Shown here: positions 36,968-64,000 of the stretch, one piece after another | Layout of the letters: the number at the start of each line of letters is the position of its first letter | How positions within the stretch are numbered: position 1 is the first letter of the stretch | NCBI GenBank assembly: GCA_964397395.1 | Contig: CAYNIN010000001.1 | Span: forward strand, 1,353-65,352 | Length of the DNA: 64,000 bases | DNA from: an uncultured Faecalibacterium sp. | GTDB taxonomy: Bacteria > Bacillota > Clostridia > Oscillospirales > Acutalibacteraceae | Direction of reading: 5' to 3' | Notes under the pieces: model-generated | Seen by the model: the letters and a program-made list of their open reading frames with translations, nothing else | Told to the model about the DNA's origin: nothing | The model's database searches: none | Position numbers and translations under genes: made by a program

Positions 36968-37237
36968 TGTTATCCCCCTTGCTGTGTTTTCTTCACTTTA
37001 TAAGATAAATTTTTCTGCTGTTTTGTTGCATATCCCATAAAAAAATAAAAGTTCCGACCTAAAGCCGAAACCAACACCCTCCTCTTACATATTTATTATA
37101 ACATACCTTGTCAAAAAATACAAGACTTGTATTTTACTGCTTTTAAGAGTAATATGTGTGTTGTCCCAATATTTTACAGTCGCAAACTCCGTTACGGTTT
37201 GTTTCAACCTGAAAATATAAAAATCGAGGTGATAAAA

Positions 37238-39067
37238 ATGAGCCCGAGATTACGTTACACGGGCGACAGAGGGAAGGTTCCCCTTGTCAAAAACATTGCC
37301 TTTGCCTTAAAACTTGTATGGCAGGCAGATAAAAAACTTCTCATTTGCTCCCTTGCCAATTGGATTGCAGATTCGGTGTTTTCTCTTTTTGTTCAGAATA
37401 TTCTGTTTTTAAAGATACTTCTCGGAATCATTGACGCAAAGGGTAATTTCGAGGAATATTTCAAAAACCTTGTTTTGTTTCTTGTCTTATCTGTGGTGCT
37501 TAAAGGCATCATCTGGTACACCGCCTATGTAAGACAGGTTTCAACAAAAAATGTTTTAAAGGAACTTAATAACAAGGTTTTTAAAAAGGCTTTGGAACTT
37601 GACATTTCCTGCTATGAAGACCCGAAATTTTACGACAAATACCAACGTGCAACGCAAGTGCTCGCATGGGGACTTTTCGATTCCGTTTGCAATAACGTTG
37701 CCCTTGTTCTCGGCAGCATTCTCTCTTTAGCCCTTGTTGTCGGTACCGTCACAACAATTGACCCTGTTTATCTTCTTTTCCTGCTGCCTACCGGCTTTGT
37801 TTTTGTTATTGAACTTTTCAAAAGCAAACTTGTCTTTAAACGTGACAAGGAAATGACCGCCAACAACCGAATTAAAGCCTATATTCAGCGCACGGTTTTC
37901 CTTAAAGAGTATTCAAAAGATATACGCACATCAAATATCTTTGCTGTTTTAATGGTACGCTTCAAAGCGGCAATTGATGCCAACGTGGAAATTCTGAAAA
38001 GTTACGGTGTACGGCTTTTCATTTACAGTATGGTAAGTTCACTTTTCAGTGATTTTATCCCAACCATCGGCACCTACGCTCTTGCGGCATATCAGTTCGT
38101 TTTCACCAAAACCATGACTGTTTCCGCCTTTTCCGTTGTACTTTCTTCAATCAATTCCGTAAGTATATCAACAATGCGTGTTGCAAACAGTTTTCAGATG
38201 CTCTCCGAAGCGGCTTTCTACTTCCAGAATCTGCGTGAGTTTTTTGATTACGAACCTGAAATCATCGGCGGCAGCAAGAAATGTGAAGAATTTGAATCTC
38301 TTGAATTTAAAAATGTTTCTTTCCGCTACCCCTCGGCAGAAAAGAATTCTCTCACAGACGTTTCATTTAAAATAAATAAAGGCGAAACCGTTGCTCTTGT
38401 GGGTGTCAACGGTGCAGGTAAAAGTACTCTTGTCAAACTCCTGCTTCGTTTCTACGATGCCACAGAGGGTGAGATCCTCTATAACGGCATAAACATCAAG
38501 GATTATGACCTTACTTCTCTGCGTGAAAGTTACGGCGCCGTTTTTCAGGATTACAAAAACTTTGCCGTTTCCGTTTACGAAAATATTATGTGTCACGAAT
38601 GTTCCGACGAAGAAAAAGAAAAGGCGAAAACCGCCCTCATGCAAAGCGGTATATGGGATAAGATTTCTGCCCTGCAAAAAGAAGGCGATACGGTACTTAC
38701 AAGAGAATTTGAAAATGACGGTATCGGTCTTTCGGGCGGTGAAAACCAGAAAGTTTCCGTTGCCCGTCTTTTTGCAAAGGATTTTCAGTTTGCGGTTCTC
38801 GACGAGCCTTCCTCTGCCCTTGACCCGATTGCAGAATACAAGATGTATCAGAGTCTGATTGAGGTTACAAAAGGCAAAACCGTTCTCTATATATCCCACC
38901 GACTTTCTTCTGCCGTTCTTTCGGATAAAATCATCGTTTTAGGCGGCGGAAAGGTGCTCGAAAGAGGCTCCCATCAGGAACTTCTTTCAAAAGGCGGAGA
39001 GTATAGCCGTATGTTCACCCTCCAGGCATCAAGTTACAACAGAGAAAAGGAGGATGAAAATGAGTAA
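37238..39067 (+). CDS. ABC exporter, fused permease/ATPase (half-transporter 1 of a heterodimer)
   Basis: 6-TM domain plus NBD: Walker A GVNGAGKST, signature LSGGENQK, Walker B AVLDEPSS, H-loop ISHRL. I chose the ATG at 37238, after GAGGTGA. Confidence 0.88.
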   Translation: MSPRLRYTGDRGKVPLVKNIAFALKLVWQADKKLLICSLANWIADSVFSLFVQNILFLKILLGIIDAKGNFEEYFKNLVLFLVLSVVLKGIIWYTAYVRQVSTKNVLKELNNKVFKKALELDISCYEDPKFYDKYQRATQVLAWGLFDSVCNNVALVLGSILSLALVVGTVTTIDPVYLLFLLPTGFVFVIELFKSKLVFKRDKEMTANNRIKAYIQRTVFLKEYSKDIRTSNIFAVLMVRFKAAIDANVEILKSYGVRLFIYSMVSSLFSDFIPTIGTYALAAYQFVFTKTMTVSAFSVVLSSINSVSISTMRVANSFQMLSEAAFYFQNLREFFDYEPEIIGGSKKCEEFESLEFKNVSFRYPSAEKNSLTDVSFKINKGETVALVGVNGAGKSTLVKLLLRFYDATEGEILYNGINIKDYDLTSLRESYGAVFQDYKNFAVSVYENIMCHECSDEEKEKAKTALMQSGIWDKISALQKEGDTVLTREFENDGIGLSGGENQKVSVARLFAKDFQFAVLDEPSSALDPIAEYKMYQSLIEVTKGKTVLYISHRLSSAVLSDKIIVLGGGKVLERGSHQELLSKGGEYSRMFTLQASSYNREKEDENE

Positions 39068-40856
39068 GACCAAAGACAAAAAGCAGTACAGTATGCTGTC
39101 AAACATTTTCTTTTTCGTAAAACTTCTCTTTTCAATTTCCCCTTTGCTTGTTATCGGTGAATTTATCTGGGGCATACTTCTCATTCTTCCCGAAAGGCTC
39201 GTTTCGGTCATCGGTGTGAAGTATATCATCGACGTTGTTACCGAAGGCGAAAACCTTGAAAGAATCTTTGCAGCCGTCGGAGTGATTGCCCTTGTTATAA
39301 TTTTAAGCAAAGTTTTCTCCTGGCTTTTCAGAGAATTTTTCTGGAACACGGAAAAAGAAAAAGTTTACTACGGGCTTAACAAAACCCTTTACGACAAAGC
39401 CCGTGGACTTGACGAAGAAAATTACGACAATCCCGAATTTTACAACAACTTCATTCTGACAATTGAATCTTCCTCTGACAATATTCAGAATCTTTTAGGT
39501 CTTGTCAGAAACTATGTGGGCAACGTAATTTCTCTTATTACAATTGCAGGTGTTCTTCTCACCATCGACCCCCTTTGTCTTGTGATAATCGTCTTTTTCA
39601 TCGGTGCTTTTCTTCCCCTGAGCCGAAAAATCGGTGATTTACAGATGGGCAGGCGGATTGACAACACAAAGTACCACCGCAGAAGTGACTACTTCCAGCG
39701 TATTTTCTACCTTCAGGACTACTGCAAAGAGGTACGAATGAACAACATCTCCCCTCTGCTTATGGAAAGGTATAACGATGCGGCAACAGATGTTGTTAAA
39801 AATCAGAAGAAATATTGGAAAAAGATTTCTTCACTTTATATGGTACAGGAAACGGGCATACAGATTTTAGGGTTTATGTTTGTGCTCCCCCTTTATCTCG
39901 GATACTGTGTACTTGTGAAAGAGAGCCTTTCGGCAGGTGATTTCGTTGCCGCTTTCAACGGCGCTCATTCAATTGCAATTTCAATCAATTTTCTGACGGT
40001 GTGGGCAGTTGCCGTTTTCACCGAAAGAGGAAAAATGATTGAAAAGTACCGTGAATTTTTAAAATGCGACTTTAAAATCAAAGACGGCGAGAAGACCGCA
40101 GAAAAATCAGAGCCCAAAGAGATTAAAATTGAAAATCTCAACTTCACCTATCCCGGTAACGATGAGCCGACTTTAAGCGACATAAATCTCACGATAAAGC
40201 CTTATGAAAAAATTGCCCTCGTCGGCTATAACGGCGCAGGTAAAACCACCCTTACCAATCTGCTTCTTCGCCTTTATGATGCCACAAGCGGTACAATTAA
40301 AATCGGCGGTGAAGACATAAGGGAAAGTACCCTTGCTTCTCACCGTGACAGATTTTCCGCCGTTTTCCAGGACTTCCAACTTTTCTCCTGCAGTGTTGGT
40401 GAAAACGTTGCTCTCGACAAGGAGTATGACAGCGAAAAGGTTATGCAGGCTCTTTCTCACAGCGGTTTCACAAAGGAACTCAAGAAGGGTACGGAAACAG
40501 AACTTCTGCGTGAATTTGACGATGAAGGCGTTATGCTTTCCGGCGGCGAAAGCCAGAAAGTTGCAATTGCAAGAGCCTTTTATAAAAACTGTCCCTTTGT
40601 TATTCTCGACGAGCCTTCGGCAAATCTCGACCCTGTTGCAGAGTACAATCTCAACTGTGCTATGATGGAAGCGGCTGCACATAAGACCGTTATTTTCATC
40701 TCACACCGTCTTTCCACAACGGTCAATGCCGACAGAATTTATGTTATGGAAAAAGGCAGGATAATCGAAAGCGGAAGCCACGAAGAACTGATGAAGATGA
40801 AGGGAACTTATGCGTATATGTTCAATCTTCAGGCAGAAAAATATAAAACCGAATAA
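39060..40856 (+). CDS. ABC exporter, fused permease/ATPase (half-transporter 2)
   Basis: Walker A GYNGAGKTT, signature LSGGESQK, Walker B VILDEPSA. The ATG at 39060 overlaps the upstream stop by 8 nt. AAGGAGG RBS. Confidence 0.88.
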   Translation: MSKTKDKKQYSMLSNIFFFVKLLFSISPLLVIGEFIWGILLILPERLVSVIGVKYIIDVVTEGENLERIFAAVGVIALVIILSKVFSWLFREFFWNTEKEKVYYGLNKTLYDKARGLDEENYDNPEFYNNFILTIESSSDNIQNLLGLVRNYVGNVISLITIAGVLLTIDPLCLVIIVFFIGAFLPLSRKIGDLQMGRRIDNTKYHRRSDYFQRIFYLQDYCKEVRMNNISPLLMERYNDAATDVVKNQKKYWKKISSLYMVQETGIQILGFMFVLPLYLGYCVLVKESLSAGDFVAAFNGAHSIAISINFLTVWAVAVFTERGKMIEKYREFLKCDFKIKDGEKTAEKSEPKEIKIENLNFTYPGNDEPTLSDINLTIKPYEKIALVGYNGAGKTTLTNLLLRLYDATSGTIKIGGEDIRESTLASHRDRFSAVFQDFQLFSCSVGENVALDKEYDSEKVMQALSHSGFTKELKKGTETELLREFDDEGVMLSGGESQKVAIARAFYKNCPFVILDEPSANLDPVAEYNLNCAMMEAAAHKTVIFISHRLSTTVNADRIYVMEKGRIIESGSHEELMKMKGTYAYMFNLQAEKYKTE

Positions 40857-55262: not shown

Positions 55263-57665
55263 TTACACTTTTTCTAATTTTGCATAATTTGCCATCAGTT
55301 TCTTTGTACTTCCGCCCTCAAAGGCAATTTCAAGCATTGCATCGTTTGCAACGGGTTTCGAGGAAAGAACAACACCTTTGCCGAAAACCTTATGCATAAC
55401 CGTGTCGCCCACATTGTACTGCACTTTCGGTGCGGCGGATTTACTCTGTACGGTCTGCTTGTTTCTTGCAAGGTATCCGTTACCCGTAAAGGCACTGCGG
55501 TCGCTTGCATCAATTCTGTCCTGTCTTTCATAGTCACCTCTTGCCAGAGCCTCAAAGGACATCTGCGACGAGGGACGTCTGCCGATTTTTTCCGTCAGGG
55601 CATCGGGGATTTCCAGAACAAAACGTGAGGGAAGATTACGGTGCGTTGTACCAAAGAGCATTCTTGAATTTGCGTGAGATAAGAAAAGTTTTCTCTTGGC
55701 TCTTGTTATACCGACATAGGCAAGTCGCCTTTCTTCCTCAACATCGTCGGGGTTGAACATACTCTGCACACCCGGGAAAATCGTTTCTTCCATACCGGGA
55801 ATGAAAACAACGGGAAATTCAAGACCCTTTGCCGAGTGGATTGTCATAAGGACTACGGCATCCTGCTGGGCGTTATAGTTATCAAGGTCGGTCATAAGAG
55901 CAACTTCTTCAAGGAAGCCCGAAAGTGTAGGTTCCTCGGCTTCATTCTGATAAGTTTTCAGGTTAGAAACAAGTTCGTATATGTTCTCGACTCTTTCTTC
56001 GCCCTTTTCTTTATCAAGGCGAAGATGAGCAATATAATCCGTCTTTCTTAAAACATCGTCAAAGAGTTCATCAAGAGGCAATTTGTCGATGTTCTCCCTC
56101 ATGGATTCAATACTTTCAGTAAAGAGCATCAACTTTTTGGCGCTTCGTTTGAGAGCCTCATACTCGTCAGCGTGAGAGAAAACCTCAAAGAGAGATATTC
56201 CGAGACCCGACGCAATTTCACTCGCCTTGTTTACCGTAGTGTCGCCGATGCCCCTTTTGGGCACATTAACAATTCTGCGCAGCCTTACGTTATCACCGGG
56301 ATTGTTTACCACCGTCAGATATGCAATCGCATCACGGATTTCCGCTCTTTCATAGAAACGGAAACCGCCGATAATTTTATAGGGTATGCCCGCCCTTACA
56401 AGTACATTTTCAAGGTTATTGGACTGGGCATTCATTCGGTAAAGAATTGCGTGGTCGCTGAAAGTGAACTTGCCTGAACTGACGTTTTCTTCGATTGTTT
56501 CCGCAATGAATTTTGCTTCGTCGGTTTCATCGTAAGCGGTATTGATAACTACCTTATCACCGCCGCCGTTGGCAGTCCAGAGGCTTTTGCCCTTTCGCTT
56601 TTTGTTGTTGGAGATAACCTCGTTGGCAACATCGAGAATCGTCTGGGTTGAGCGGTAGTTCTGCTCAAGACGGATTATCTGACTTTCCGCATATCTGTGT
56701 TCAAAGGAAAGTATATTTTCAATCGTTGCGCCACGGAAACGGTAGATACTCTGGTCATCGTCACCGACAACACAGATGTTTCTGTGACCTGCCGCAAGAA
56801 GTTCCGTCAGTCTGTACTGTGCGTGGTTTGTATCCTGATACTCGTCTACCATTATGTATCTGAATTTGCGTTGATAGTAACCTCTTACGTCGGGGTACTC
56901 CTCAAGAAGTTTAACGGTATTTACAATAATATCATCAAAGTCCATTGCATCGGAATTTTTCAGTTCTTTCTGGTACATTTTATAGACTTTGCCGATTTGC
57001 GCCTTTCTTGCATCCTTACCTGCCGAGGCTATATAATCCTCGGGAGAAACAAGGCTGTCCTTTGCGTGACTGATTTCATTAACAACAGTCTTGACAGGGA
57101 GAACGGCATCGCTTATACCCAATTGCCTCTGGCACTCTTTGACGAGCCTTTTGGTGTCGTCGGAATCGTAAATCGTGAAGTTTTTACTGTAACCGAGAAC
57201 TTCGCCGTCTTTTCTGAGTATTCTCACACAGCAGGAGTGGAAAGTTGAAGCCCAGATGTCCCCCGCCTCGTCGCCGAGCATTTTTTCAAGACGCTCTTTA
57301 AGTTCGTTTGCCGCCTTGTTGGTAAAGGTGATGGCAAGTATCTGCCAGGGTCTTGCAGGGTCAACGGCAATCAGATCCTCAATATCAAACATCGCATCGG
57401 TATCGCCGTCAAGATATGCTTTCATCAGACGTATATCTCTTTCACTCGGCTCAAAGGCAACTTCTTTGCTGTGATATGCGTCACCGTATTTTACGATATT
57501 TGCAATACGGTTAACGAGTACCGTTGTTTTGCCGCTTCCTGCACCTGCAAGAATGAGCACGGGGCCGTTGACCTGAAAGATAGCCTGCTGCTGTTTGTCA
57601 TTCATATATTTGAAATCATTCTCGATGATTTTCTTTCTGAGTTCAAAAAATTCTTTAGATGCCAT
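55263..57665 (-). CDS. pcrA: ATP-dependent DNA helicase PcrA/UvrD
   Basis: AGAGSGKTT (motif I), VDEYQDTN (motif II), the SF1 motifs, and a C-terminal Tudor-like VGDTVMHKVFGKGVV. Confidence 0.92.
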   Translation of the reverse strand: MASKEFFELRKKIIENDFKYMNDKQQQAIFQVNGPVLILAGAGSGKTTVLVNRIANIVKYGDAYHSKEVAFEPSERDIRLMKAYLDGDTDAMFDIEDLIAVDPARPWQILAITFTNKAANELKERLEKMLGDEAGDIWASTFHSCCVRILRKDGEVLGYSKNFTIYDSDDTKRLVKECQRQLGISDAVLPVKTVVNEISHAKDSLVSPEDYIASAGKDARKAQIGKVYKMYQKELKNSDAMDFDDIIVNTVKLLEEYPDVRGYYQRKFRYIMVDEYQDTNHAQYRLTELLAAGHRNICVVGDDDQSIYRFRGATIENILSFEHRYAESQIIRLEQNYRSTQTILDVANEVISNNKKRKGKSLWTANGGGDKVVINTAYDETDEAKFIAETIEENVSSGKFTFSDHAILYRMNAQSNNLENVLVRAGIPYKIIGGFRFYERAEIRDAIAYLTVVNNPGDNVRLRRIVNVPKRGIGDTTVNKASEIASGLGISLFEVFSHADEYEALKRSAKKLMLFTESIESMRENIDKLPLDELFDDVLRKTDYIAHLRLDKEKGEERVENIYELVSNLKTYQNEAEEPTLSGFLEEVALMTDLDNYNAQQDAVVLMTIHSAKGLEFPVVFIPGMEETIFPGVQSMFNPDDVEEERRLAYVGITRAKRKLFLSHANSRMLFGTTHRNLPSRFVLEIPDALTEKIGRRPSSQMSFEALARGDYERQDRIDASDRSAFTGNGYLARNKQTVQSKSAAPKVQYNVGDTVMHKVFGKGVVLSSKPVANDAMLEIAFEGGSTKKLMANYAKLEKV

Positions 57666-57839
57666 ATTTACCTCTTACCGAATCCGTTTTCGCAGACGGA
57701 TTTCTAACTTTAAACATACACTGTAATTTTACATTATCCTAAAGAAAATTACAACCATTAAAAGTAAATATTATTATTTTTTCTTGACTGCCCACCCCAA
57801 AAGCAGTACAATAGGAAAAAACTCAAAGGAATGATATAT

Positions 57840-58313
57840 ATGGCAATTGAAAAAGTCAGGGACTATTTCAGTCAGTTCGGTATGGAAAACAGAATAATGG
57901 AATTTGACGTTTCTTCTGCAACCGTTGAACTTGCGGCAAAGGCTCTCGGCACCCAGGGAAAGAGAATTGCAAAAACTCTTTCATTTCACCTTGACAGCGG
58001 TGCAATTCTCATTGTTGCCGCAGGTGACGGCAGAGTTGACAACAAAAAATTCAAAGCAACTTTCTCACAGAAAGCAAAAATGCTCTCTTTTGACGAAGTT
58101 GAACAAATGACAGGCCATGCCGTCGGCGGTGTTTGTCCTTTCGGAATAAATGAGGGTGTCAGGGTTTATCTTGACGAAGGGCTCAAACGTTTCGATACGG
58201 TTTTTCCTGCCTGCGGAAGCAGTAACAGCGCAATTGAACTGACCGTTGAGGAACTTGAAAAATACTCAAAGGCAGACGGCTGGGTTGACGTGTGCAAAAC
58301 ACCCGAAGAATGA
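57840..58313 (+). CDS. YbaK/EbsC-family aminoacyl-tRNA deacylase domain protein
   Basis: 157 aa. TGHAVGGVCPFG motif. I chose the ATG at 57840, 9 nt after AAAGGA. Confidence 0.75.
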   Translation: MAIEKVRDYFSQFGMENRIMEFDVSSATVELAAKALGTQGKRIAKTLSFHLDSGAILIVAAGDGRVDNKKFKATFSQKAKMLSFDEVEQMTGHAVGGVCPFGINEGVRVYLDEGLKRFDTVFPACGSSNSAIELTVEELEKYSKADGWVDVCKTPEE

Positions 58314-58320
58314 TTCATAC

Positions 58321-58353
58321 AAAAAAGCGAGGCACACTTTATCAGTGTGCCTC
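58321..58353 (-). terminator. Terminator after small ORF P1 (probably also serves the ybaK-like gene)
   Basis: Stem gaggcacact / agtgtgcctc with a 5-nt loop. The minus strand continues gctttttt. Confidence 0.7.
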
Positions 58354-58375
58354 ATGTTTCGCTTTAAAGGGTTAA

Positions 58376-58504
58376 TTATTCGCCTTCAGTTTCAGTTTCT
58401 TCTGTGTCGATTGTGGGCATCTTGCTTGTGTCAACACCGAAAAGTTCAAGAATGCTCTTGATGAATGCTAAAAACTGAGCAATAACTGATTCAAGCATTT
58501 TCAT
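58376..58504 (-). CDS. Small acidic amphipathic peptide P1 (42 aa)
   Basis: My translation: MKMLESVIAQFLAFIKSILELFGVDTSKMPTIDTEETETEGE*. GGAGG lies 8 nt before the ATG. It has its own promoter and terminator and is a paralog of P2-P11. Confidence 0.75.
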   Translation of the reverse strand: MKMLESVIAQFLAFIKSILELFGVDTSKMPTIDTEETETEGE

Positions 58505-58535
58505 ATTAAAATCCTCCGTTCATATTTGTATTTAT

Positions 58536-58564
58536 ATATTAACCGATAATATATAATTTGTCAA
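58536..58564 (-). promoter_or_regulatory. Sigma-A-type promoter of P1
   Basis: TTGACA, 17 nt, TAATAT. Confidence 0.6.
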
Positions 58565-58571
58565 TATATCA

Positions 58572-58612
58572 CCGTAATAAAAACTGTCCTGCCGACTTAC
58601 CGACAGGACAGT
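58572..58612 (-). terminator. Terminator after P2
   Basis: Stem actgtcctg..caggacagt (9 bp plus 2 inner bp), followed by ttttatt on the minus strand. Confidence 0.7.
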
Positions 58613-58623
58613 TTCGTTTTTAA

Positions 58624-58758
58624 TTATTCTTCTGTTGCTGTGTACTCGTCAAGTTTTCCCTGAAGAGTTGCTGCTGCATCGGTTAAGCCGAGTGCTTCAA
58701 GAATTGTTACGAATGCTGCAAGGAATGCGAAAATTACGTTTTTTACTTCTGCGGGCAT
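58624..58758 (-). CDS. Small acidic amphipathic peptide P2 (44 aa)
   Basis: MPAEVKNVIFAFLAAFVTILEALGLTDAAATLQGKLDEYTATEE*. GGAGG lies 8 nt before the ATG. Confidence 0.75.
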   Translation of the reverse strand: MPAEVKNVIFAFLAAFVTILEALGLTDAAATLQGKLDEYTATEE

Positions 58759-58793
58759 GGTATTAGCCTCCTTTATTTATTTTTTGCAATTTT

Positions 58794-58823
58794 ATTATAT
58801 AATATTTTTATGCTGTTTGTCAA
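58794..58823 (-). promoter_or_regulatory. Sigma-A-type promoter of P2
   Basis: TTGACA, 18 nt, TATAAT. Confidence 0.6.
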
Positions 58824-58854
58824 GAGTTTTTTAAACAAACTGTGAATTTTATTT

Positions 58855-58891
58855 TAAACAAAAAAGAAGAAGCCTACCGTAAAGGCAGGCT
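58855..58891 (-). terminator. Terminator after P3
   Basis: Minus strand: aagcctgcc-tttac-ggtaggctt (with one G-U pair), followed by cttctttttt. Confidence 0.7.
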
Positions 58892-58906
58892 TGTTGCTGA
58901 ATAAAA

Positions 58907-59056
58907 ATTATTCTTCTGCTGCGATTTCTTCTCTGATTTTATCTTTAGCATTTGATAACATTTCCTTAACAAAATCGGGAGTTGCAAGACCGAGAGCGTT
59001 TAAGAGAGCTTCGACTGCTGCTGCAATGCTTTCAATAACATTAATGATAGTTGCCA
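58907..59056 (-). CDS. Small acidic amphipathic peptide P3 (49 aa)
   Basis: MATIINVIESIAAAVEALLNALGLATPDFVKEMLSNAKDKIREEIAAEE*. GGAGG lies 9 nt before the ATG. Confidence 0.75.
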
Positions 59057-59114
59057 TAATGAGTAACCTCCAAAAAAATTTGATTTAATCTGTTTGTTTT
59101 TCAGATTACGGATA

Positions 59115-59143
59115 CATTCTACAACAAATAATTCGATTTGTCA
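59115..59143 (-). promoter_or_regulatory. Sigma-A-type promoter of P3
   Basis: TTGACA, 17 nt, TAGAAT. The leader is about 50 nt. Confidence 0.6.
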
Positions 59144-59210
59144 ATAATATGTTAACATTTTTATTGTTTTTAATAAAATTATCTCACACTTTTCTTTCGA
59201 GAACCTTGTA

Positions 59211-59249
59211 CAATAAAAATTCGGCACACCTCAAAAGAAGTGTGCCGAA
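59211..59249 (-). terminator. Terminator after P4
   Basis: Stem ttcggcacac / gtgtgccgaa with a 10-nt loop, followed by tttttatt on the minus strand. Confidence 0.7.
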
Positions 59250-59268
59250 AAGCATTTGTGTTTGGATT

Positions 59269-59424
59269 TTAGTTGTTTTTACCGTCGCTGAACTGATCAA
59301 GAAGTTCGTGAGCCTTTTCGGAAAGAGTTGTTGCGAAATCGGCAAGATTAAGTTTGTTAAGGATAACAACGAAAACTTCTATAAGAGCCAATGCGGTGTC
59401 TGCAAAATTTACGGGTAATTCCAT
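59269..59424 (-). CDS. Small acidic amphipathic peptide P4 (51 aa)
   Basis: MELPVNFADTALALIEVFVVILNKLNLADFATTLSEKAHELLDQFSDGKNN*. GGAGG lies 9 nt before the ATG. Confidence 0.7.
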   Translation of the reverse strand: MELPVNFADTALALIEVFVVILNKLNLADFATTLSEKAHELLDQFSDGKNN

Positions 59425-59455
59425 AGTTATATTCCTCCTCAAATTCTATGGTTTT

Positions 59456-59484
59456 AGTCTACATTATAAATGTTCATTTGTCAA
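59456..59484 (-). promoter_or_regulatory. Sigma-A-type promoter of P4
   Basis: TTGACA, 17 nt, TAGACT. Confidence 0.55.
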
Positions 59485-59538
59485 GAGAAAATTCACAATT
59501 TATTTAATTTTAACTATTTATTTATATTACTGCAAACT

Positions 59539-59571
59539 AAAAAAGAAAAAACCTGCCCCTAAGGACAGGTT
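59539..59571 (-). terminator. Terminator after P5 (end of the P6-P5 unit)
   Basis: Minus strand: aacctgtcc-ttag-gggcaggtt (one G-U pair), followed by ttttttcttttt. Confidence 0.7.
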
Positions 59572-59607
59572 TAATTTAAACTGTTAACAACTTAAATTAT
59601 ATGGGAA

Positions 59608-59754
59608 TTATTCACCAATAGCTTCTTTAACCCATTCGCCATTGAGTTTTTCTTCAAATCTTTCAAGAACACCGGCATCAACGCCAAGCTTTGCAAGAAT
59701 TGTTGTGAAAACAGCAACAAGAGTTTCAATTAACTTTGCAATATTTTCAGGCAT
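59608..59754 (-). CDS. Small acidic amphipathic peptide P5 (48 aa)
   Basis: MPENIAKLIETLVAVFTTILAKLGVDAGVLERFEEKLNGEWVKEAIGE*. GGAGG lies 8 nt before the ATG. It is 47 nt downstream of P6 with no intervening terminator. Confidence 0.75.
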   Translation of the reverse strand: MPENIAKLIETLVAVFTTILAKLGVDAGVLERFEEKLNGEWVKEAIGE

Positions 59755-59801
59755 GTTTATATCCTCCATATTAGATTTTGTTTTTTAGAAAAAATTCAGG
59801 A

Positions 59802-59960
59802 TTATTCACCTTTAATGATGTATTCCCAGTCGTTTGCGAAATCTTCAGCCTTTTTACCTGCTTCTTCAAGTTCAGCATCTGTTGTGAAACCGATAGCTAC
59901 GAGAACCTGACCAAAGAAAGCAGCAATTTTTGCTACGAGATCCTTAAGAAAATCAGCCAT
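59802..59960 (-). CDS. Small acidic amphipathic peptide P6 (52 aa)
   Basis: MADFLKDLVAKIAAFFGQVLVAIGFTTDAELEEAGKKAEDFANDWEYIIKGE*. GGAGG lies 9 nt before the ATG. Confidence 0.75.
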   Translation of the reverse strand: MADFLKDLVAKIAAFFGQVLVAIGFTTDAELEEAGKKAEDFANDWEYIIKGE

Positions 59961-60013
59961 TATACTTTTCCTCCTTTATATAGTTAATCTGAGTTTCCTC
60001 TGATTACTCTCTT

Positions 60014-60042
60014 ATTTTATACCCAAACTATAAACTTGTCAA
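60014..60042 (-). promoter_or_regulatory. Sigma-A-type promoter of the P6-P5 unit
   Basis: TTGACA, 17 nt, TAAAAT. The leader is about 46 nt. Confidence 0.6.
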
Positions 60043-60098
60043 TAGTTTTTTAACAATTGTTTATCATCTGTTTTTTTAATCTTTTTTCTTTTAAATTT

Positions 60099-60130
60099 TA
60101 AAAAGAAAAACCTGCCTGAAGGGCAGGTTT
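60099..60130 (-). terminator. Terminator after P7
   Basis: Stem aaacctgcc / ggcaggttt with a 5-nt loop, followed by a U-run on the minus strand. Confidence 0.7.
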
Positions 60131-60141
60131 AAACTTTGTGA

Positions 60142-60279
60142 TTATGCTACGGTTCCCTCGGTTGAATCTTCTTCCGTTTCTAAACTTGCCAACCAATCTG
60201 TGATAAATGAAGGAACATCTTCACCGATAAGTGACATAAGTTTTACGATAAATTCAGCAATAATTTTAATAAAAGCCAT
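60142..60279 (-). CDS. Small acidic amphipathic peptide P7 (45 aa)
   Basis: MAFIKIIAEFIVKLMSLIGEDVPSFITDWLASLETEEDSTEGTVA*. GGAGG lies 8 nt before the ATG. Confidence 0.75.
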   Translation of the reverse strand: MAFIKIIAEFIVKLMSLIGEDVPSFITDWLASLETEEDSTEGTVA

Positions 60280-60336
60280 TTCATTTTCCTCCTGAAAAAT
60301 TATTTATCTGATTTATAAATCAAATTTATTGTTTTT

Positions 60337-60365
60337 ATTTTACATCATAAATTTGTAAAAGTCAA
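60337..60365 (-). promoter_or_regulatory. Sigma-A-type promoter of P7
   Basis: TTGACT, 17 nt, TAAAAT. The end of the leader (aaataatttttcaggaggaaaa) is nearly identical to that of P8. Confidence 0.6.
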
Positions 60366-60401
60366 CAAAATATAATAAACCAATTGTTAACATTAAGAAG
60401 C

Positions 60402-60436
60402 AAAAAAAGAAAACCTACTCTTTCGGGTAGGGTTTC
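60402..60436 (-). terminator. Terminator after P8
   Basis: Stem aacctactc / gggtagggtt (bulged, with a G-U pair) and loop tttc, flanked by an A/T run. Confidence 0.6.
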
Positions 60437-60466
60437 GGATTATACTATAATTTTTTTGCACTGAAA

Positions 60467-60613
60467 TTATTCAGCGTTTTCTGAGTCTAAATCAAAAATA
60501 CTTCCAAAGATTCTCTTAAGGCTTGCCTCAAGTTCTTCCGTATCACCTTGAATACCGAAAACAGAAAGAATGACCTTAACAAGTTTCATTGCATATTCGA
60601 GAATGGCTTCCAT
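60467..60613 (-). CDS. Small acidic amphipathic peptide P8 (48 aa)
   Basis: MEAILEYAMKLVKVILSVFGIQGDTEELEASLKRIFGSIFDLDSENAE*. GGAGG lies 8 nt before the ATG. Confidence 0.75.
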   Translation of the reverse strand: MEAILEYAMKLVKVILSVFGIQGDTEELEASLKRIFGSIFDLDSENAE

Positions 60614-60669
60614 TATGTTTTCCTCCTGAAAAAATTATTTGTCTGACAAACAATCAAACCTACGTTCAT

Positions 60670-60698
60670 ATTTTACAGTATTTTGTCTTAAAAGTCAA
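60670..60698 (-). promoter_or_regulatory. Sigma-A-type promoter of P8
   Basis: TTGACT, 17 nt, TAAAAT. Confidence 0.6.
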
Positions 60699-60730
60699 TA
60701 ATATATAACAAATCATTTTTAAAATACAGC

Positions 60731-60762
60731 AAAAGAAAAAACCCACCCGAAAGGGCAGGTTT
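60731..60762 (-). terminator. Terminator after P9 (end of the P10-P9 unit)
   Basis: Minus-strand RNA: aaccugccc-uuuc-ggguggguu, followed by uuuuucuuuu. Two G-U pairs mean the stem forms only in the minus-strand transcript. Confidence 0.7.
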
Positions 60763-60767
60763 TTAAT

Positions 60768-60786
60768 TATACTATACTATACTATA
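60768..60786. repeat. Pentanucleotide microsatellite (tatac) x 3.8 in the P9 3' UTR
   Basis: tatactatactatactata. A single tatactata occupies the equivalent position after P8 (about 60441). Confidence 0.7.
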
Positions 60787-60803
60787 ATTATTTTGTAACG
60801 AAA

Positions 60804-60965
60804 TTATTCGCCTACAGTTTCGTCAGCAGCATCATCATTGCCCATGATAACGTTCATGATCTTTGTGATGAGACCAACGATTGCTTCTACGAGAGCGCTA
60901 AGTTCTGCGTTTTCGGGAGCAACAGCTTTGATTTCAGCAATTACTTTTGCGATAGCTTCTTTCAT
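60804..60965 (-). CDS. Small acidic amphipathic peptide P9 (53 aa)
   Basis: MKEAIAKVIAEIKAVAPENAELSALVEAIVGLITKIMNVIMGNDDAADETVGE*. GGAGG lies 8 nt before the ATG. It is 37 nt downstream of P10. Confidence 0.7.
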   Translation of the reverse strand: MKEAIAKVIAEIKAVAPENAELSALVEAIVGLITKIMNVIMGNDDAADETVGE

Positions 60966-61002
60966 TGTTAAATCCTCCTTGTAAAATTTTAAGTTAAGTC
61001 AA

Positions 61003-61146
61003 TTATGCGTTGAGATCTTCGAGACCAGCGAGTTCTTTTTCAATTGCTTCCCATTCGCCAAGGTCAACAAGAAGAGCCTTAACTGCGTTTACGATTGAAA
61101 CGATGAGAGCTTCGAACTTTGTGATAAAATCTGTAATAGCCTGCAT
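61003..61146 (-). CDS. Small acidic amphipathic peptide P10 (47 aa)
   Basis: MQAITDFITKFEALIVSIVNAVKALLVDLGEWEAIEKELAGLEDLNA*. GGAGG lies 9 nt before the ATG. Confidence 0.7.
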   Translation of the reverse strand: MQAITDFITKFEALIVSIVNAVKALLVDLGEWEAIEKELAGLEDLNA

Positions 61147-61200
61147 TATACGCTACCTCCTTATAAGATTAAGTTAGGGTTATCCCCTATCTTTAGTCTT

Positions 61201-61229
61201 ATAATACACCTTAATTCACAATTTGTCAA
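61201..61229 (-). promoter_or_regulatory. Sigma-A-type promoter of the P10-P9 unit
   Basis: TTGACA, 17 nt, TATTAT. The leader is about 48 nt. Confidence 0.6.
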
Positions 61230-61330
61230 TATATTACTCAAAATTTTAATAAAATTATTTTATTAAGATTTCTTAAGGTAAATTTGCACCTCCATTTGAA
61301 GAACCGTGGGCGGTATAACTCTTTATCGTA

Positions 61331-61365
61331 CCAATGAAAAGCACCCCGTTTTTTTCGGAGTGCTT
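61331..61365 (-). terminator. Putative terminator after P11
   Basis: Stem aagcactccg / cggggtgctt with loop a7. The U tract is weak (ttcatt). Confidence 0.5.
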
Positions 61366-61372
61366 CATAATT

Positions 61373-61477
61373 TTATTCTGTTTCTTCGGAACCCAAAACT
61401 TTGTCAAGACCAATCTTACTGAGAAGATTGATAAGAGCCACTATAATTTCGTCAATCCATGCTTTAAACTGTGCCAT
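61373..61477 (-). CDS. Small acidic amphipathic peptide P11 (34 aa)
   Basis: MAQFKAWIDEIIVALINLLSKIGLDKVLGSEETE*. GGAGG lies 7 nt before the ATG. It is 28 nt downstream of the Cys-rich protein gene and is probably co-transcribed with it. Confidence 0.7.
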   Translation of the reverse strand: MAQFKAWIDEIIVALINLLSKIGLDKVLGSEETE

Positions 61478-61505
61478 TTTCTTTCCTCCTTAAATTACCG
61501 TTAAC

Positions 61506-61988
61506 TTATGCGCCCATAATTTCGTCGAATCTGAGGAATTCGAAGATTGTGTTAAAGAAGTTATCAAACCATTCTCTTAAAGTTTTAAGAACACGCTGGA
61601 ATGTGGTGACAATCTGTTCCTGCTGATCCTCACTGAAAATGGGCTTGCTGTCGTTTTCTGAGCCGTCGGAATTTACGGGACAGCATGTGCAGTTACATGT
61701 GCAGGGATAAATACCGTTACATTCGACACAGCAAGTCTGAAGGTCATAATATGTTTTGCCGTCTTCACCTACAAAAACAGTCTTTTCAACGCAAGCTGTT
61801 CTGTATGAAAGATCAAGGTTATCGCACCAGATGCAACAATGGCATTTTTCACCTGATTCTGCAGGATAGTGGTCTTCTGTACATTCGCATTTATTTGCAG
61901 CAATGGCTTCGTCTGCAGCAAAAGTTGCAGGAACAAAGAGAGTTGCAAGCATTAAAACTGCAAGTAAAACTGATAAAAACTTTTTCAT
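61506..61988 (-). CDS. Secreted cysteine-rich protein with a C-terminal amphipathic helix
   Basis: 160 aa. Signal peptide (..PATFA/ADEA). 15 Cys fall within ~75 residues (CEC..CHCCIWC..C..CCVEC..CTCNCTCC). The C-terminus is IVTTFQRVLKTLREWFDNFFNTIFEFLRFDEIMGA. GGAGG RBS. Confidence 0.75.
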   Translation of the reverse strand: MKKFLSVLLAVLMLATLFVPATFAADEAIAANKCECTEDHYPAESGEKCHCCIWCDNLDLSYRTACVEKTVFVGEDGKTYYDLQTCCVECNGIYPCTCNCTCCPVNSDGSENDSKPIFSEDQQEQIVTTFQRVLKTLREWFDNFFNTIFEFLRFDEIMGA

Positions 61989-62041
61989 AATTGTCTCCTC
62001 CGGATTATTTTACGGCTACATTGTAAACCGTTCACAGATAT

Positions 62042-62070
62042 ATTATAATTCATAACCCTTTAAAAGTCAA
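62042..62070 (-). promoter_or_regulatory. Sigma-A-type promoter of the Cys-rich protein/P11 unit
   Basis: TTGACT, 17 nt, TATAAT. Confidence 0.6.
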
Positions 62071-62079
62071 CCGAATTCG

Positions 62080-62111
62080 CAAAAAAATAAATGCCCACCG
62101 AAGTGAGCATT
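62080..62111 (-). terminator. Terminator after the 131-aa secreted protein gene
   Basis: Minus strand: aatgctcac-ttcg-gtgggcatt (one G-U pair), followed by tattttttt. Confidence 0.7.
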
Positions 62112-62122
62112 CTTCTTTGCAA

Positions 62123-62518
62123 TTAAGCAGCAACGGGACTAACGTCTTCTTCTGCGGGAGCAGTTGTTGTAACTTCTTCCTCAGTTTCGGTGCTTCCCGA
62201 GTTCATGGCACCTGCGATAAGTTCTTCAATCTGACTGATGATATCATCTTTGTCAATTACACCGAAAATCATGGCAAGTTTCACATAAACTTTAACAAGT
62301 TTAAGAGCAATCTTTGCAAACTTGAGAGCAGGACCAACCGTCCAGAAAGGAAGGTCGAGAATCCACTGAAGCGTATCATCGGTTTCGGCTTCGGAAGCAT
62401 CACCTTCAACTTCTCCTGTTGTTGTTTCGGCGTCATCTGTTACATCTTCAGCAAAAGCAACGGTTGTAACTGAGAACATCATTAAAAGTGCAAGAAAAAG
62501 TGAAATAATTTTTTTCAT
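62123..62518 (-). CDS. Secreted acidic protein carrying an internal copy of the amphipathic helix-G-h-D module
   Basis: 131 aa. Signal peptide (..TVAFA/EDV), an acidic stretch, LKFAKIALKLVKVYVKLAMIFGVIDKDDIISQIEELIAG, and an acidic Thr/Glu tail. AAGGAGG RBS. Confidence 0.75.
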   Translation of the reverse strand: MKKIISLFLALLMMFSVTTVAFAEDVTDDAETTTGEVEGDASEAETDDTLQWILDLPFWTVGPALKFAKIALKLVKVYVKLAMIFGVIDKDDIISQIEELIAGAMNSGSTETEEEVTTTAPAEEDVSPVAA

Positions 62519-62550
62519 TGGAAATTCCTCCTTGAATTTTATTTGACTTT

Positions 62551-62579
62551 ATTATACCTTTTATTAACTGAATTGTCAA
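62551..62579 (-). promoter_or_regulatory. Consensus sigma-A promoter of the 131-aa protein gene
   Basis: TTGACA, 17 nt, TATAAT. The -35 box overlaps the stop codon of the XRE gene. Confidence 0.6.
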
Positions 62580-62950
62580 CAGTTTTCTTGTTTATTAAGA
62601 CTGTTAATAAACTCAAGGGCTTTCTCTTTATCTTCTTTGTTCAGGACTCTGAAATACATAAGAAGATACCTTTCTTCTTTCGGAAGATTTGCTATCGGGT
62701 CAATTTCCACAGAAGAAAGAGCGTCGACTTTTTCTCTTCTCAGTTCGGGATTGTTTTCTTCATAACCGCAAAGATAACCGAGAGATACGTTATATATATC
62801 GCACAGTTTTTTCATAGATTCAAGAGAAGGTCTTGTTTTACCGATTTCATAAAATGTGTAGGCACTTCTGTCGATACCGAGAACATCAGCGATGTTCTGC
62901 TGAGTAAAATGATGACTCTTTCTTAAATTTCTGAGGTTTTCATCAAGCAT
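62576..62950 (-). CDS. XRE-family HTH transcriptional regulator
   Basis: 124 aa. LRNLRKSHHFTQQNIADVLGIDRSAYTFYEIGKTRPSLESMKKL is a Cro/C1 HTH, followed by a ~55-aa C-terminal extension. It is the first gene of the peptide locus on the same strand. Confidence 0.8.
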   Translation of the reverse strand: MLDENLRNLRKSHHFTQQNIADVLGIDRSAYTFYEIGKTRPSLESMKKLCDIYNVSLGYLCGYEENNPELRREKVDALSSVEIDPIANLPKEERYLLMYFRVLNKEDKEKALEFINSLNKQENC

Positions 62951-63058
62951 AGTTTCACTCCTTTTGTGTTTCTTACTTTATCTGAATGTATAATAACACA
63001 AAATGTGACATTTTTCAACATTATTTAAAAAGTTTTATTTAATTTTTTTCATCTTCCG

Positions 63059-64000
63059 TCAGTGCTCTTTGTGAAAATATGCGTATATTTTTTCACCGTC
63101 GGTTTTGCTGATACCCTTAACGGAAGAAAGGGTATCGGCATCGGCGTTTTTAATTGCGGTAAGAGTTCTGAAATGTTCCAGAAGCAGCAGTGCTTTCTTT
63201 TCACCGATACCGTCAATTTTTGTAAGAGTCATGGAAAGAGCCGATTTTCCGTGCTTTTGTTTGTGGTAGGTTATTGCATAGCGGTGCACTTCCTCCTGAA
63301 TTGCAGAAACGAGAGTAAAAACACGTCTGCCCGAATTTATGGCAATTTCCTGACCGCCCGAAGTTATGGCTCGGGTGCGGTGCTTCGAGTCCTTGACCAT
63401 ACCGAAAACGGCTATATCAAGACCGAAAGCCTCGACAACGGGTTTAACGGCATTGACCTGCCCCTGACCGCCGTCAAGCAAAATCAGATCGGGGAGTCTG
63501 CCGAAGCCCTCGTCACTCTTTTCACTTTCGGTGTATCGGTTAAGTCGGCGGCTGATAACTTCTCTCATTGAGCCGTAATCGTCCTGACCCGAAAAGCCTT
63601 TTATGGCAAATCGGCGGTATGCACTTCTCAAAGGTTGTCCGTTTCTGAAAACTACCATACCTGCCACATTGTCACTGCCTGCGGTATGGGATATATCGTA
63701 AGACTCGATGTATTCGGGCGTTTTTTTAAGACCGAGCACCTTGGCAAGTTCATCAAGCACCGCCGTTTCGCCTGCCTGTCTGCCCAGATATTCGTCAAGT
63801 TTCTGTGCCGCATTGTTAAGACACATCTCCGTCACCCTTACTTTTTCTCCCCTTTGAGGATTTAAAAGGGTAACCTTTCTGCCTTTCTTCTCTGTGAGCC
63901 ACTGAGCCACAAGTTCGCTGTCCGTAACCTCACCGTCGGTGACTATAAGGGACGGCACGGCTCTGTCGAGGGAATAGTAGGAGGTTATAAGTTCCTGGCG
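63059..64000 (-). CDS. uvrC: Excinuclease ABC subunit C, C-terminal part (5' end outside the window)
   Basis: The frame is open to base 64000. It has the UvrC endonuclease-V-like region (PDLILLDGGQGQV) and the C-terminal (HhH)2 (IDGIGEKKALLLLEHF). Confidence 0.88.
   Translation of the reverse strand, partial: RQELITSYYSLDRAVPSLIVTDGEVTDSELVAQWLTEKKGRKVTLLNPQRGEKVRVTEMCLNNAAQKLDEYLGRQAGETAVLDELAKVLGLKKTPEYIESYDISHTAGSDNVAGMVVFRNGQPLRSAYRRFAIKGFSGQDDYGSMREVISRRLNRYTESEKSDEGFGRLPDLILLDGGQGQVNAVKPVVEAFGLDIAVFGMVKDSKHRTRAITSGGQEIAINSGRRVFTLVSAIQEEVHRYAITYHKQKHGKSALSMTLTKIDGIGEKKALLLLEHFRTLTAIKNADADTLSSVKGISKTDGEKIYAYFHKEH

Follow-up and report, generated by a model that had tools for sequence, protein, structure and literature searches.

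Eleven tandem small genes for leaderless, acidic, predicted amphipathic peptides beside ybaK in an uncultured gut Acutalibacteraceae bacterium

Are eleven short open reading frames (ORFs), crowded head-to-tail on the minus strand of a gut bacterial chromosome, genuine genes, and what might their peptides do? The question is raised by positions 58376–61477 of a 64,000-nucleotide (nt) stretch of contig CAYNIN010000001.1 (the window, meaning the whole stretch analysed), from an uncultured Faecalibacterium sp. placed in the Acutalibacteraceae, where an earlier sequence-only reading proposed a family of small acidic peptides of 34–53 amino acids (aa), designated here P1 to P11 (Table 1). The ORFs are real protein-coding genes under purifying selection, and profile comparison indicates that they form one paralogous family, which has no published description although its member genes are already called, unnamed, in public records. 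By analogy with the staphylococcal phenol-soluble modulins (PSMs), the favoured functional reading, to which a probability of about 0.4 is given, is that they encode leaderless amphipathic peptides, made in abundance, which act at the cell surface, at the outer face of the membrane or in the medium.

Coding signals and selection on the proteins

All eleven ORFs start with an ATG placed 7–9 nt 3' of a perfect GGAGG and stop at TAA, and eight of the encoded peptides end in glutamate. None contains cysteine or a signal peptide, and net charges run from -3 to -7 across the whole set. These features, like the coordinates of the ORFs, agree with the sequence-only reading, two details of which need adjustment. 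The overall length range of 34–53 codons holds, but P7 has 48 aa and not 53, since its GGAGG serves the second ATG; and the GAATAAT said to close all eight glutamate-ending genes closes seven, P1 having GAATAAA. The 64-kb window contains 19 matches to GGAGG-N7-9-ATG, where shuffles give an expectation of 3.7 +/- 2.1, and 13 of them fall within 4.2 kb (58.4–62.6 kb), where they belong to the 11 peptide genes and two genes upstream of them.

A sister strain or species (run SRR20337171; L100, L001) retains orthologs of P5–P11 in the same order. Comparison of these seven pairs by the Nei-Gojobori method gives pooled rates of 0.65 for synonymous (dS) and 0.16 for non-synonymous substitution (dN), and thus a dN/dS of 0.24, with P8 and its ortholog separated by 17 synonymous and five non-synonymous differences. 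The frames survive indels in the tails, the part in which orthologs diverge fastest, and none of 10 independent metagenome contigs from the species of the window carries a frameshift or nonsense mutation. The window and the sister strain are 74% identical in coding DNA and 56% in intergenic DNA, the conserved islands in the latter being the -35 and -10 elements, the Shine-Dalgarno (SD) sequence and terminator stems. The low dN/dS, the undisrupted frames and the strong translation and transcription signals together establish the eleven ORFs as protein-coding genes, in agreement with the earlier expectation of frame-preserving substitution at a dN/dS below 1.

The same numbers bear on the notion that the ORFs are type I toxins, or are incidental to small-RNA genes, which the small, hydrophobic, multi-copy ORFs and the structured 5' untranslated regions (UTRs) of some units might suggest. 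It is extremely unlikely: a dN/dS of 0.24 is selection on protein, the tails are acidic and not basic, expression of a toxin from perfect SD sequences and strong promoters would be lethal, and systematic plus-strand antisense promoters and terminators are missing, a scan of 58376–61477 yielding no recurring plus-strand pair of the two. Rfam, searched at E up to 1, returned terminator-driven sub-threshold matches only.

Codon usage in the peptide genes departs from that of neighbouring core genes, with ATA at 4% against 20%, higher ATC, GCT and GGT, GAA at 96%, and GCG and CTG absent, a bias exceeding what AT-richness alone explains. In low-GC Firmicutes such a bias is a mark of translationally selected, highly expressed genes, and the bias in the array resembles theirs. 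Taken with the consensus promoter, SD sequence and terminator of each unit, it would predict very high abundance of the products. The GC content across 58400–62600 is 0.29–0.37 against 0.43–0.49 in the flanking core genes, and that of third codon positions (GC3) is 0.30 in the peptide genes against 0.41–0.49, with the neighbouring S131 and XRE genes (Table 1) similarly low in GC3; the low GC of the cluster fits either an expression-linked codon bias or a separate origin of the cluster as a whole.

Family signature, predicted structure and competing functions

Membership was assessed by leave-one-out comparison, in which a hidden Markov model (HMM) of ten peptides was scored against the held-out one, 227 other small ORFs of the window and 2200 composition-matched shuffles (2428 sequences in total). 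The held-out peptide ranked first in seven of the eleven cases, second or third in three and fifteenth in the case of P4, with E-values of about 1e-5 for P7, P9, P10 and P11 and of 0.008–0.04 for most of the others; ranks of 1–3 for 10 of the 11 thus argue for the single paralogous family that had been proposed. Its signature comprises M-x2-3, an amphipathic helix, [IL]-L-x3-G-[VIL]-[DNTE], often a proline 4–6 residues on, and an acidic tail. In a cross-species alignment of 22 sequences Gly23 never varies and Leu19 is kept in at least 90%, and the hinge Gly is found in 10 of the 11 window peptides. The later half of helix 1 and the Gly hinge are the best conserved parts, and the tails are variable.

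AlphaFold2 reproduced the earlier proposal of a helix, a Gly hinge and an acidic segment in the two peptides P9 and P11. P9 is modelled as a helix (residues 2–22), a loop (23–27, GLATP) and a second helix (28–48), with a mean predicted local distance difference test score of 82, and P11 as a helix (2–22) followed by a low-confidence acidic tail, so the acidic segment may be helical in some members and disordered in others. In a Foldseek search of the PDB with the P9 model, the best E was only 3.5.

Helix 1, about 21 residues long, is predicted to present a wide hydrophobic face. Its best 19-residue windows have a mean hydrophobicity of 0.54–0.78 (Eisenberg) and a hydrophobic moment of 0.20–0.43, every peptide has 2–4 charged residues spaced i, i+3/4 on one face of this helix, and the N-termini carry no basic n-region. 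With such hydrophobicity, a helix of 21 residues is incompatible with a monomeric state in water and would therefore oligomerise or sit at a lipid or hydrophobic interface. In the favoured reading, peptides made in large amounts would act at such an interface, where the hydrophobic helix would bind or self-assemble, with the acidic tail lending solubility and negative charge. The likeliest site of action would lie outside the cell, at the outer face of the membrane, the cell surface or in the medium; possible roles include those of a surfactant, a biofilm or adhesion peptide, or a vesicle-promoting peptide, and export would be carried out by a transporter encoded elsewhere in the genome, as with PSMs.

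The hydrophobicity of helix 1, coupled with its moderate moment, also approaches that of the transmembrane segment of the Pf3 coat protein (0.77), and the peptides might instead be membrane-resident mini-proteins, the helix of which would insert, possibly in oligomeric form and possibly along a YidC-type route, with the acidic tail outside as a polyanionic brush or modulating an envelope enzyme or transporter. Single-pass proteins tend to carry their acidic flanks on the outer side, and translocation of a short acidic tail can proceed without Sec, both of which would suit this topology; an exporter would be unneeded, fitting the absence of one from the locus. Nevertheless, this explanation is rather doubtful, for charged residues gathered on one face are typical of interfacial rather than transmembrane helices, the N-terminal side has no basic anchor, and eleven paralogs with strong predicted expression would be unusual for accessory membrane subunits.

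Cytoplasmic mini-proteins, that is, helical hairpins or bundles which bind and regulate a protein partner, or acidic decoys, would agree with the helix-loop-helix predicted for P9 and with the absence of an export signal. Purifying selection is strong along the whole length of P8 and P6, which fits a specific binding surface, and many characterised small proteins of Gram-positive bacteria are regulators (PMC10730256). This alternative is considered unlikely, as a copy number varying from 3 to 11 and rapid tail divergence would be odd for a regulator, the constitutive-looking consensus promoters and the expression-type codon bias suggest stoichiometric abundance instead of regulation, and the very hydrophobic helix 1 would have to be buried.

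The profile of conservation, with its peak at late helix 1 and the Gly hinge ahead of variable tails, is that of a leader-core array, so that the peptides could be precursors: the helix would serve as leader or export signal, cleavage would occur at the Gly or beyond it, and the acidic C-terminus would be released as a signal peptide or as a substrate for modifying enzymes encoded elsewhere; the XRE regulator adjoining the array would be in keeping with this. A precursor function is quite unlikely, however. The peptides have no double-glycine motif and no Cys, and the C-terminal part is conserved too in P6, P8 and P9 and predicted to be helical in P9. The 124-aa XRE protein is too short for a peptide-binding repeat domain and is missing from relatives, while modifying enzymes lie near none of the six loci and a C39 peptidase domain was not detected in the ABC (ATP-binding cassette) pair of the window.

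Relatives, transcription units and neighbouring genes

A HMMER profile of the eleven peptides run against 1.84 billion representative proteins recovered only the window's own peptides and two close orthologs, and a word-indexed search of 5.8 billion proteins likewise returned only the window's own peptides and close orthologs. No member was found in the viral contigs scanned, and a scan of Joint Genome Institute (JGI) metagenomes gave one short locus only. All eleven exact sequences are present, nameless, in the NCBI and Logan protein collections; the description of the genes as unannotated is thus true of the ORF track supplied to the sequence-only reading but not of public databases. A literature search for a described counterpart of such peptides found none.

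Neighbourhoods of ybaK-like genes from 80 genomes were scanned for small acidic ORFs preceded by an SD sequence, and two Acutalibacteraceae metagenome-assembled genomes (MAGs; L024 and L025) carry three such genes beside ybaK. The closest ybaK-like proteins in the genome collection, 74–77% identical, come from MAGs of Acutalibacteraceae and other Clostridia, many of them from an animal-gut MAG project. Searches seeded with the L024 and L025 genes led to subfamilies A (..NKIVKLVFDILAVFGIEGEESPVQPK), B (MDKFYAFLGGIWDFVMQILINAGV..) and C (MFWTIVKALTNNIFRLVVAILKNEGINTEGWPTELI) and to a 29-aa D type. In three longer contigs the gene order is aromatic amino-acid operon, A, B, C, convergent ybaK, lipase and pcrA. 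The small-gene array is thus always convergent with ybaK, as in the window; its upstream neighbour differs. Synteny with ybaK is seen in L001, L003-L012, L024, L025, L093, L095 and L098, and the ybaK-like gene is a conserved positional anchor in all species carrying the family.

A profile built from foreign sequences only ranks P4 first, P11 second and P6 sixth, and places seven of the eleven window peptides within the top 41 of 2438. Common descent of the window peptides and the three-gene arrays is probable because the weak profile ranks, the synteny, the architecture and the invariant Gly are taken together. The three-gene ybaK-convergent array of related Acutalibacteraceae-like gut bacteria is probably the ancestral form, which the window species expanded to eleven, so that copy number varies from 3 to 11 between related species; the family is probably older than the eleven-gene array, as its probable three-gene relatives sit by ybaK in related species. 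The window species has also added the XRE regulator and two secreted proteins to the locus. By these searches the family appears confined to one narrow lineage of a few uncultured, Acutalibacteraceae-like gut Clostridia. Further mini-genes of 29–30 aa lie beside ybaK in relatives (L025 2920-3009, minus strand; L093 9307-9399, minus strand; L024 7532-7624, plus strand), among them MAEFFAKFEAIWQALWEYLYKVFAYWEEN, of which public data contain at least seven variants, and MITIDELIALIKSYIDQIIEMIKSIISLAE; they form amphipathic helices that lack the Gly hinge.

Promoter-like sites number 42 (17.1 expected) and terminator-like sites 18 (5.1 expected) over the scanned range 57600-64000, and the best-scoring sites are nearly all on the minus strand, immediately before or after the small genes. 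From these signals and the flanks nine transcription units were deduced, namely S160+P1, P2+P3, P4, P5, P6+P7, P8, P9, P10 and P11. Eight units bounded by promoters and terminators had been proposed earlier; the signals and their placement stand, but the number is nine, and P1 has no promoter of its own, lying 28 nt after the S160 gene and using the S160 promoter. The array promoters look like plain sigma-70 consensus, and the 124-aa XRE protein is the one regulator encoded nearby. Terminators, promoters and leaders of the array are themselves repeat families, and the P4 and P5 units are 70% identical in the 5' flank and only 41% in the coding sequence, from which it follows that the array grew by tandem duplication of whole expression units, with the regulatory parts held and the peptides free or driven to diverge.

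Five of eight leaders contain a 7–10-bp hairpin in the 5' UTR (P2 ~61165-61195, P4 ~60635-60660, P5 ~60300-60325, P6 ~59985-60010 and P9 ~59085-59110), several with a 3' arm ..CAGAT(T/A)AA, and the P6 and P9 stems are kept in the sister strain, the P9 loop being different. These could be mRNA-stabilising 5' stem-loops or an operator; a shared regulatory element is unsupported by their stability, which is barely above that of shuffles (z -0.6 to -2.3). Between stop codon and terminator, a ATTATAGTATA..TAAT element is common to the 3' UTRs of P3 (~60755-60800) and P4 (60441-60472); its copies are 88% identical over 32 nt, and in P3 it forms a threefold TATAG repeat.

Table 1. Peptide genes, adjoining genes and expression signals of the array (window coordinates; LOO, leave-one-out rank; empty cells, nothing recorded)
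Feature	Position	Strand	Product or sequence	Remarks
P1	61373-61477	-	34 aa; MAQFKAWIDEIIVALINLLSKIGLDKVLGSEETE	GGAGG-7 nt-ATG; identical in 10 contigs; LOO 2/2428; in one transcription unit with upstream S160
P2	61003-61146	-	47 aa	LOO 1
P3	60804-60965	-	53 aa	N-terminal extension ahead of family helix; unit with P2; LOO 1
P4	60467-60613	-	48 aa	weakest LOO (15); rank 1 with other-species-only profile
P5	60142-60279	-	45 aa	ortholog in L100, dN/dS 0.22
P6	59802-59960	-	52 aa	ortholog P0015, dN/dS 0.21
P7	59608-59754	-	48 aa	start at second ATG; unit with P6; dN/dS 0.36; leave-one-out E 6.6e-6
P8	59269-59424	-	51 aa	hinge Gly replaced by Asn (NKLNLAD); dN/dS 0.05
P9	58908-59057	-	49 aa	two helices predicted (see text); dN/dS 0.09
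P10	58624-58758	-	44 aa	ortholog P0002
P11	58376-58504	-	42 aa	helix, then disordered acidic tail (predicted); ortholog P0010, dN/dS 0.30
S160	61506..61988	-	160 aa, signal peptide	~15 Cys (CxC/CC/CxxC clusters); C-terminal amphipathic helix; first gene of P1 unit
S131	62123..62518	-	131 aa, acidic, signal peptide	mature part: cationic amphipathic helix ending FGVID, then acidic Thr/Glu-rich tail
XRE-family helix-turn-helix regulator	62576..62950	-	124 aa	Pfam HTH_3 E 2e-14; between uvrC and array; first gene of cluster
ybaK-like	57831..58313	+	aminoacyl-tRNA editing	Pfam tRNA_edit E 1.9e-26; convergent with array
S131 promoter	62551-62579		TTGACA-17-TATAAT	perfect
S160+P1 promoter	62042..62070	-	TTGACT-17-TATAAT	scan
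P2+P3 promoter	61201..61229	-	TTGACA-17-TATTAT	scan
P4 promoter	60670..60698	-	TTGACT-17-TAAAAT	scan; paralogous to P5 promoter (repeat families D2/D3)
P5 promoter	60337..60365	-		scan and repeat analysis
P6+P7 promoter	60014..60042	-	TTGACA-17-TAAAAT	scan; kept in sister strain
P8 promoter	59456..59484	-		scan and sister-strain comparison
P9 promoter	59116..59144	-	TTGACA-17-TAGAAT	scan and sister-strain comparison
P10 promoter	58794..58823	-	TTGACA-18-TATAAT	scan; 12/12
P11 promoter	58536..58564	-	TTGACA-17-TAATAT	scan
S131 terminator	62089-62112			its own
Hairpin and T-run 3' of P1	61337..61366	-		read from sequence; not listed by scanner
Terminator 3' of P3	60737..60764	-		scan; repeat family D1
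Terminator 3' of P4	60403..60434	-		scan and repeat analysis
Terminator 3' of P5	60108..60130	-		scan and repeat analysis
Terminator 3' of P7	59549..59572	-		scan and repeat analysis
Terminator 3' of P8	59220..59249	-	13-bp stem	scan
Terminator 3' of P9	58870..58892	-		scan and repeat analysis
Hairpin and T-run 3' of P10	58577..58613	-		read from sequence
Terminator 3' of P11	58328..58354	-		scan; just beyond stop codon of convergent ybaK-like gene

The window as a whole is core chromosome (valS, asnS or aspS, the dcw cluster, polA, polC, ispG, rseP, dxr, cdsA, uppS, GH28 and pcrA). The array had been placed between a ybaK-like gene and uvrC; the former does adjoin it, convergently, but S160, S131 and the XRE gene intervene before uvrC. 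Neighbours of the array are thus uvrC, the XRE regulator, two secreted proteins, ybaK and pcrA in the window, and the aro operon, ybaK, lipase and pcrA in relatives. S160 belongs to no Pfam family and has four protein variants among the 10 contigs; its homology to the peptides found no support, with an hhalign probability of 2% and no profile similarity. S131 by eye resembles a Sec-exported version of the peptide module. The XRE gene is confined to the species whose array is expanded and has no counterpart in the three-gene arrays of relatives; its product may regulate the array, as a candidate only, and no shared operator was identified for it there.

No exporter, modifying enzyme or immunity gene adjoins the array in the window, as the sequence-only reading had remarked, or in relatives (six genomic contexts). 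The sole exporter in the window is encoded by two adjacent genes for ABC-ATPase-containing proteins of 646 and 600 aa (37127-40856, plus strand), which probably form a heterodimeric exporter and are not linked to the family in relatives, and no ABC-2-type exporter lies within the window. DUF4474 is present in two proteins (6482-8554 and 12987-13976, both minus strand), one of them also with three fibronectin type III repeats; encoded near a fucosidase and a galactokinase, these may be glycan-related surface proteins.

These surroundings also bear on whether the products are anionic leaderless bacteriocins or interbacterial toxins. A length of 42–53 aa, the leaderless helical build and the multi-peptide locus recall the enterocin L50, aureocin and lacticin Q classes, and the peptides have diversified rapidly. 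Known members are strongly cationic, however, against a net charge of -3 to -7 here; immunity and transporter genes are absent at the loci examined, and no bacteriocin family of Pfam or NCBIfam was matched at E up to 10, so that this explanation is very unlikely.

The surface-active reading and its relation to known systems

Turnover in copy number, fast-diverging tails and two Sec-secreted neighbours, one of them co-transcribed with P1, weakly point to a function facing outward. Several observations weigh against the favoured reading. We know of no characterised membrane-active bacterial peptide family with a net charge of -3 to -7, and a negative charge should weaken binding to anionic bacterial membranes. 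The peptides have no signal peptide and, in the six genomic contexts, no linked transporter; the window's only ABC exporter pair is 17 kb off, with ABC_tran but not Peptidase_C39 detected. Homology of S131 to the peptides has no statistical support (hhalign probability 5%, with the signal peptide aligned instead). Taken singly, the matches that link the window peptides to the three-gene arrays are weak, 0.004 being the lowest E in the cross-species profile comparison. The missing adjacent exporter is uninformative, because Pmt, which exports the PSMs, is likewise encoded at a distance from the psm genes.

A wider proposal is that an independently evolved PSM-like system exists in strictly anaerobic gut Clostridia of the Acutalibacteraceae group, in which a rapidly growing set of leaderless amphipathic peptides with strong negative charge, among the most abundant products of the cell, would leave it although no exporter is linked to them and would serve in the gut as surfactants, as matrix or amyloid-like material, or as vesicle-releasing or host-active agents. 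This is possible, if doubtful; it would constitute a new class of bacterial surface-active peptides, of a charge opposite to that of nearly all known ones. If the peptides are exported, the PSM principle, by which leaderless amphipathic peptides shape surfaces, biofilms and host contact, would extend to anaerobic gut commensals, with the addition of an anionic chemistry almost unknown among membrane-active peptides. If they stay in the cell or its membrane, they would still be a paralog family of massive predicted expression in a widespread uncultured gut lineage. Of all parts of bacterial genomes, small proteins are charted least well, and the majority of orphan small ORFs are indistinguishable from noise; this array is distinguished from it by selection, a sequence signature, a probable history from three genes to eleven at a fixed site and expression signals. 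The family signature and the ybaK anchor would let annotators find and name such genes.

The peptides match no described family by profile, as had been anticipated. Pfam and NCBIfam gave noise only for every peptide at E up to 10, PHROGs gave a holin at E=0.017 in two of 26 family members and nothing else, PADLOC no defence-system match, and a PDB sequence search with two family profiles nothing significant. The sole recurring name is PSM-alpha, and none of its matches is significant (Pfam PSMalpha, PF17063, E=0.15 in two of 26 members; PDB 6gqc, PSM-alpha3, E=0.56; hhalign 5%), while PSM-beta/Staph_haemo (PF05480) was not matched at E up to 10. The PSM-alpha near-matches reflect an amphipathic pattern in common and do not demonstrate homology, and the earlier reading had likewise seen no sequence homology to PSM-beta; the PSM likeness is a working analogy and not family membership, and the surfactant, biofilm and host-active roles suggested by the sequence-only reading likewise stand as analogy.

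Among known systems, the type I toxins of Firmicutes (Fst/TxpA/BsrG; the C. difficile toxins, PMC10730256) share a size of 30–60 aa, a hydrophobic helix and multiple chromosomal copies with the array peptides, but combine an unbroken transmembrane helix and a basic tail with an antisense RNA and translational repression, in contrast to the charged amphipathic helices, acidic tails and maximal translation signals found here. This class was rejected on the lack of antisense pairs, of an uninterrupted transmembrane helix with a basic tail and of an Rfam match above threshold.

Leader-core arrays, whether of double-glycine peptides or of the prochlorosin/NHLP type of ribosomally synthesised and post-translationally modified peptides (RiPPs), likewise consist of short paralogous ORFs with a more conserved N-terminus and a Gly at the junction. 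Unlike them, the array peptides have no GG/GA/GS motif (the junction is G-[VIL]-[DNTE]) and no Cys, several of their C-terminal parts are conserved, and no locus has a peptidase-containing ABC transporter or a modifying enzyme. Double-glycine and RiPP precursors were rejected because a cleavage motif is missing and neither a transporter with a C39 peptidase nor enzyme genes were found in six loci.

Leaderless class II bacteriocins (enterocin L50A/B, aureocin A53/A70, lacticin Q, BHT-B) are also leaderless and helical, have 30–53 aa and are sometimes encoded several to a locus. They are, however, cationic, Trp/Lys-rich, compact saposin-like bundles encoded with transporter and immunity genes, whereas the array peptides are anionic, have one or two helices and are encoded near no such genes; a net charge of -3 to -7 and the lack of adjacent transporter and immunity genes led to the rejection of the cationic class. 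The chaplins of Streptomyces are paralogous small proteins of ~50 aa, believed to act together at a hydrophobic interface. They differ from the array peptides in carrying a Sec signal peptide and a conserved chaplin domain that is rich in beta structure and contains Cys, and being unrelated in sequence they serve as an analogy only.

The PSMs (PSM-beta, ~44 aa; PSM-alpha and delta-toxin, 20–26 aa) share with the array peptides the lack of a signal peptide and an amphipathic helix, which here is predicted. Amphipathic helices are joined at a Gly-containing hinge in both, and the beta-type PSMs are also net negative; the C-terminal helix of PSM-beta1, with a hydrophobicity of 0.53 and a moment of 0.38, is in the range of the peptides. 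Both are encoded by tandem paralogous genes of the core genome with no exporter beside them, and very high expression, which here is read from sequence signals, is a further likeness. The array peptides are, by contrast, much more acidic (-3 to -7), many with a disordered acidic tail; most of their genes have their own promoter and terminator, as against the Agr-controlled operon of the PSMs; and their host is a strictly anaerobic gut bacterium of the Clostridium class. Orphan small-protein families are common in metagenomes, and what is unusual in this one is its strong negative charge, the provision of a promoter and terminator for most genes, and the host lineage.

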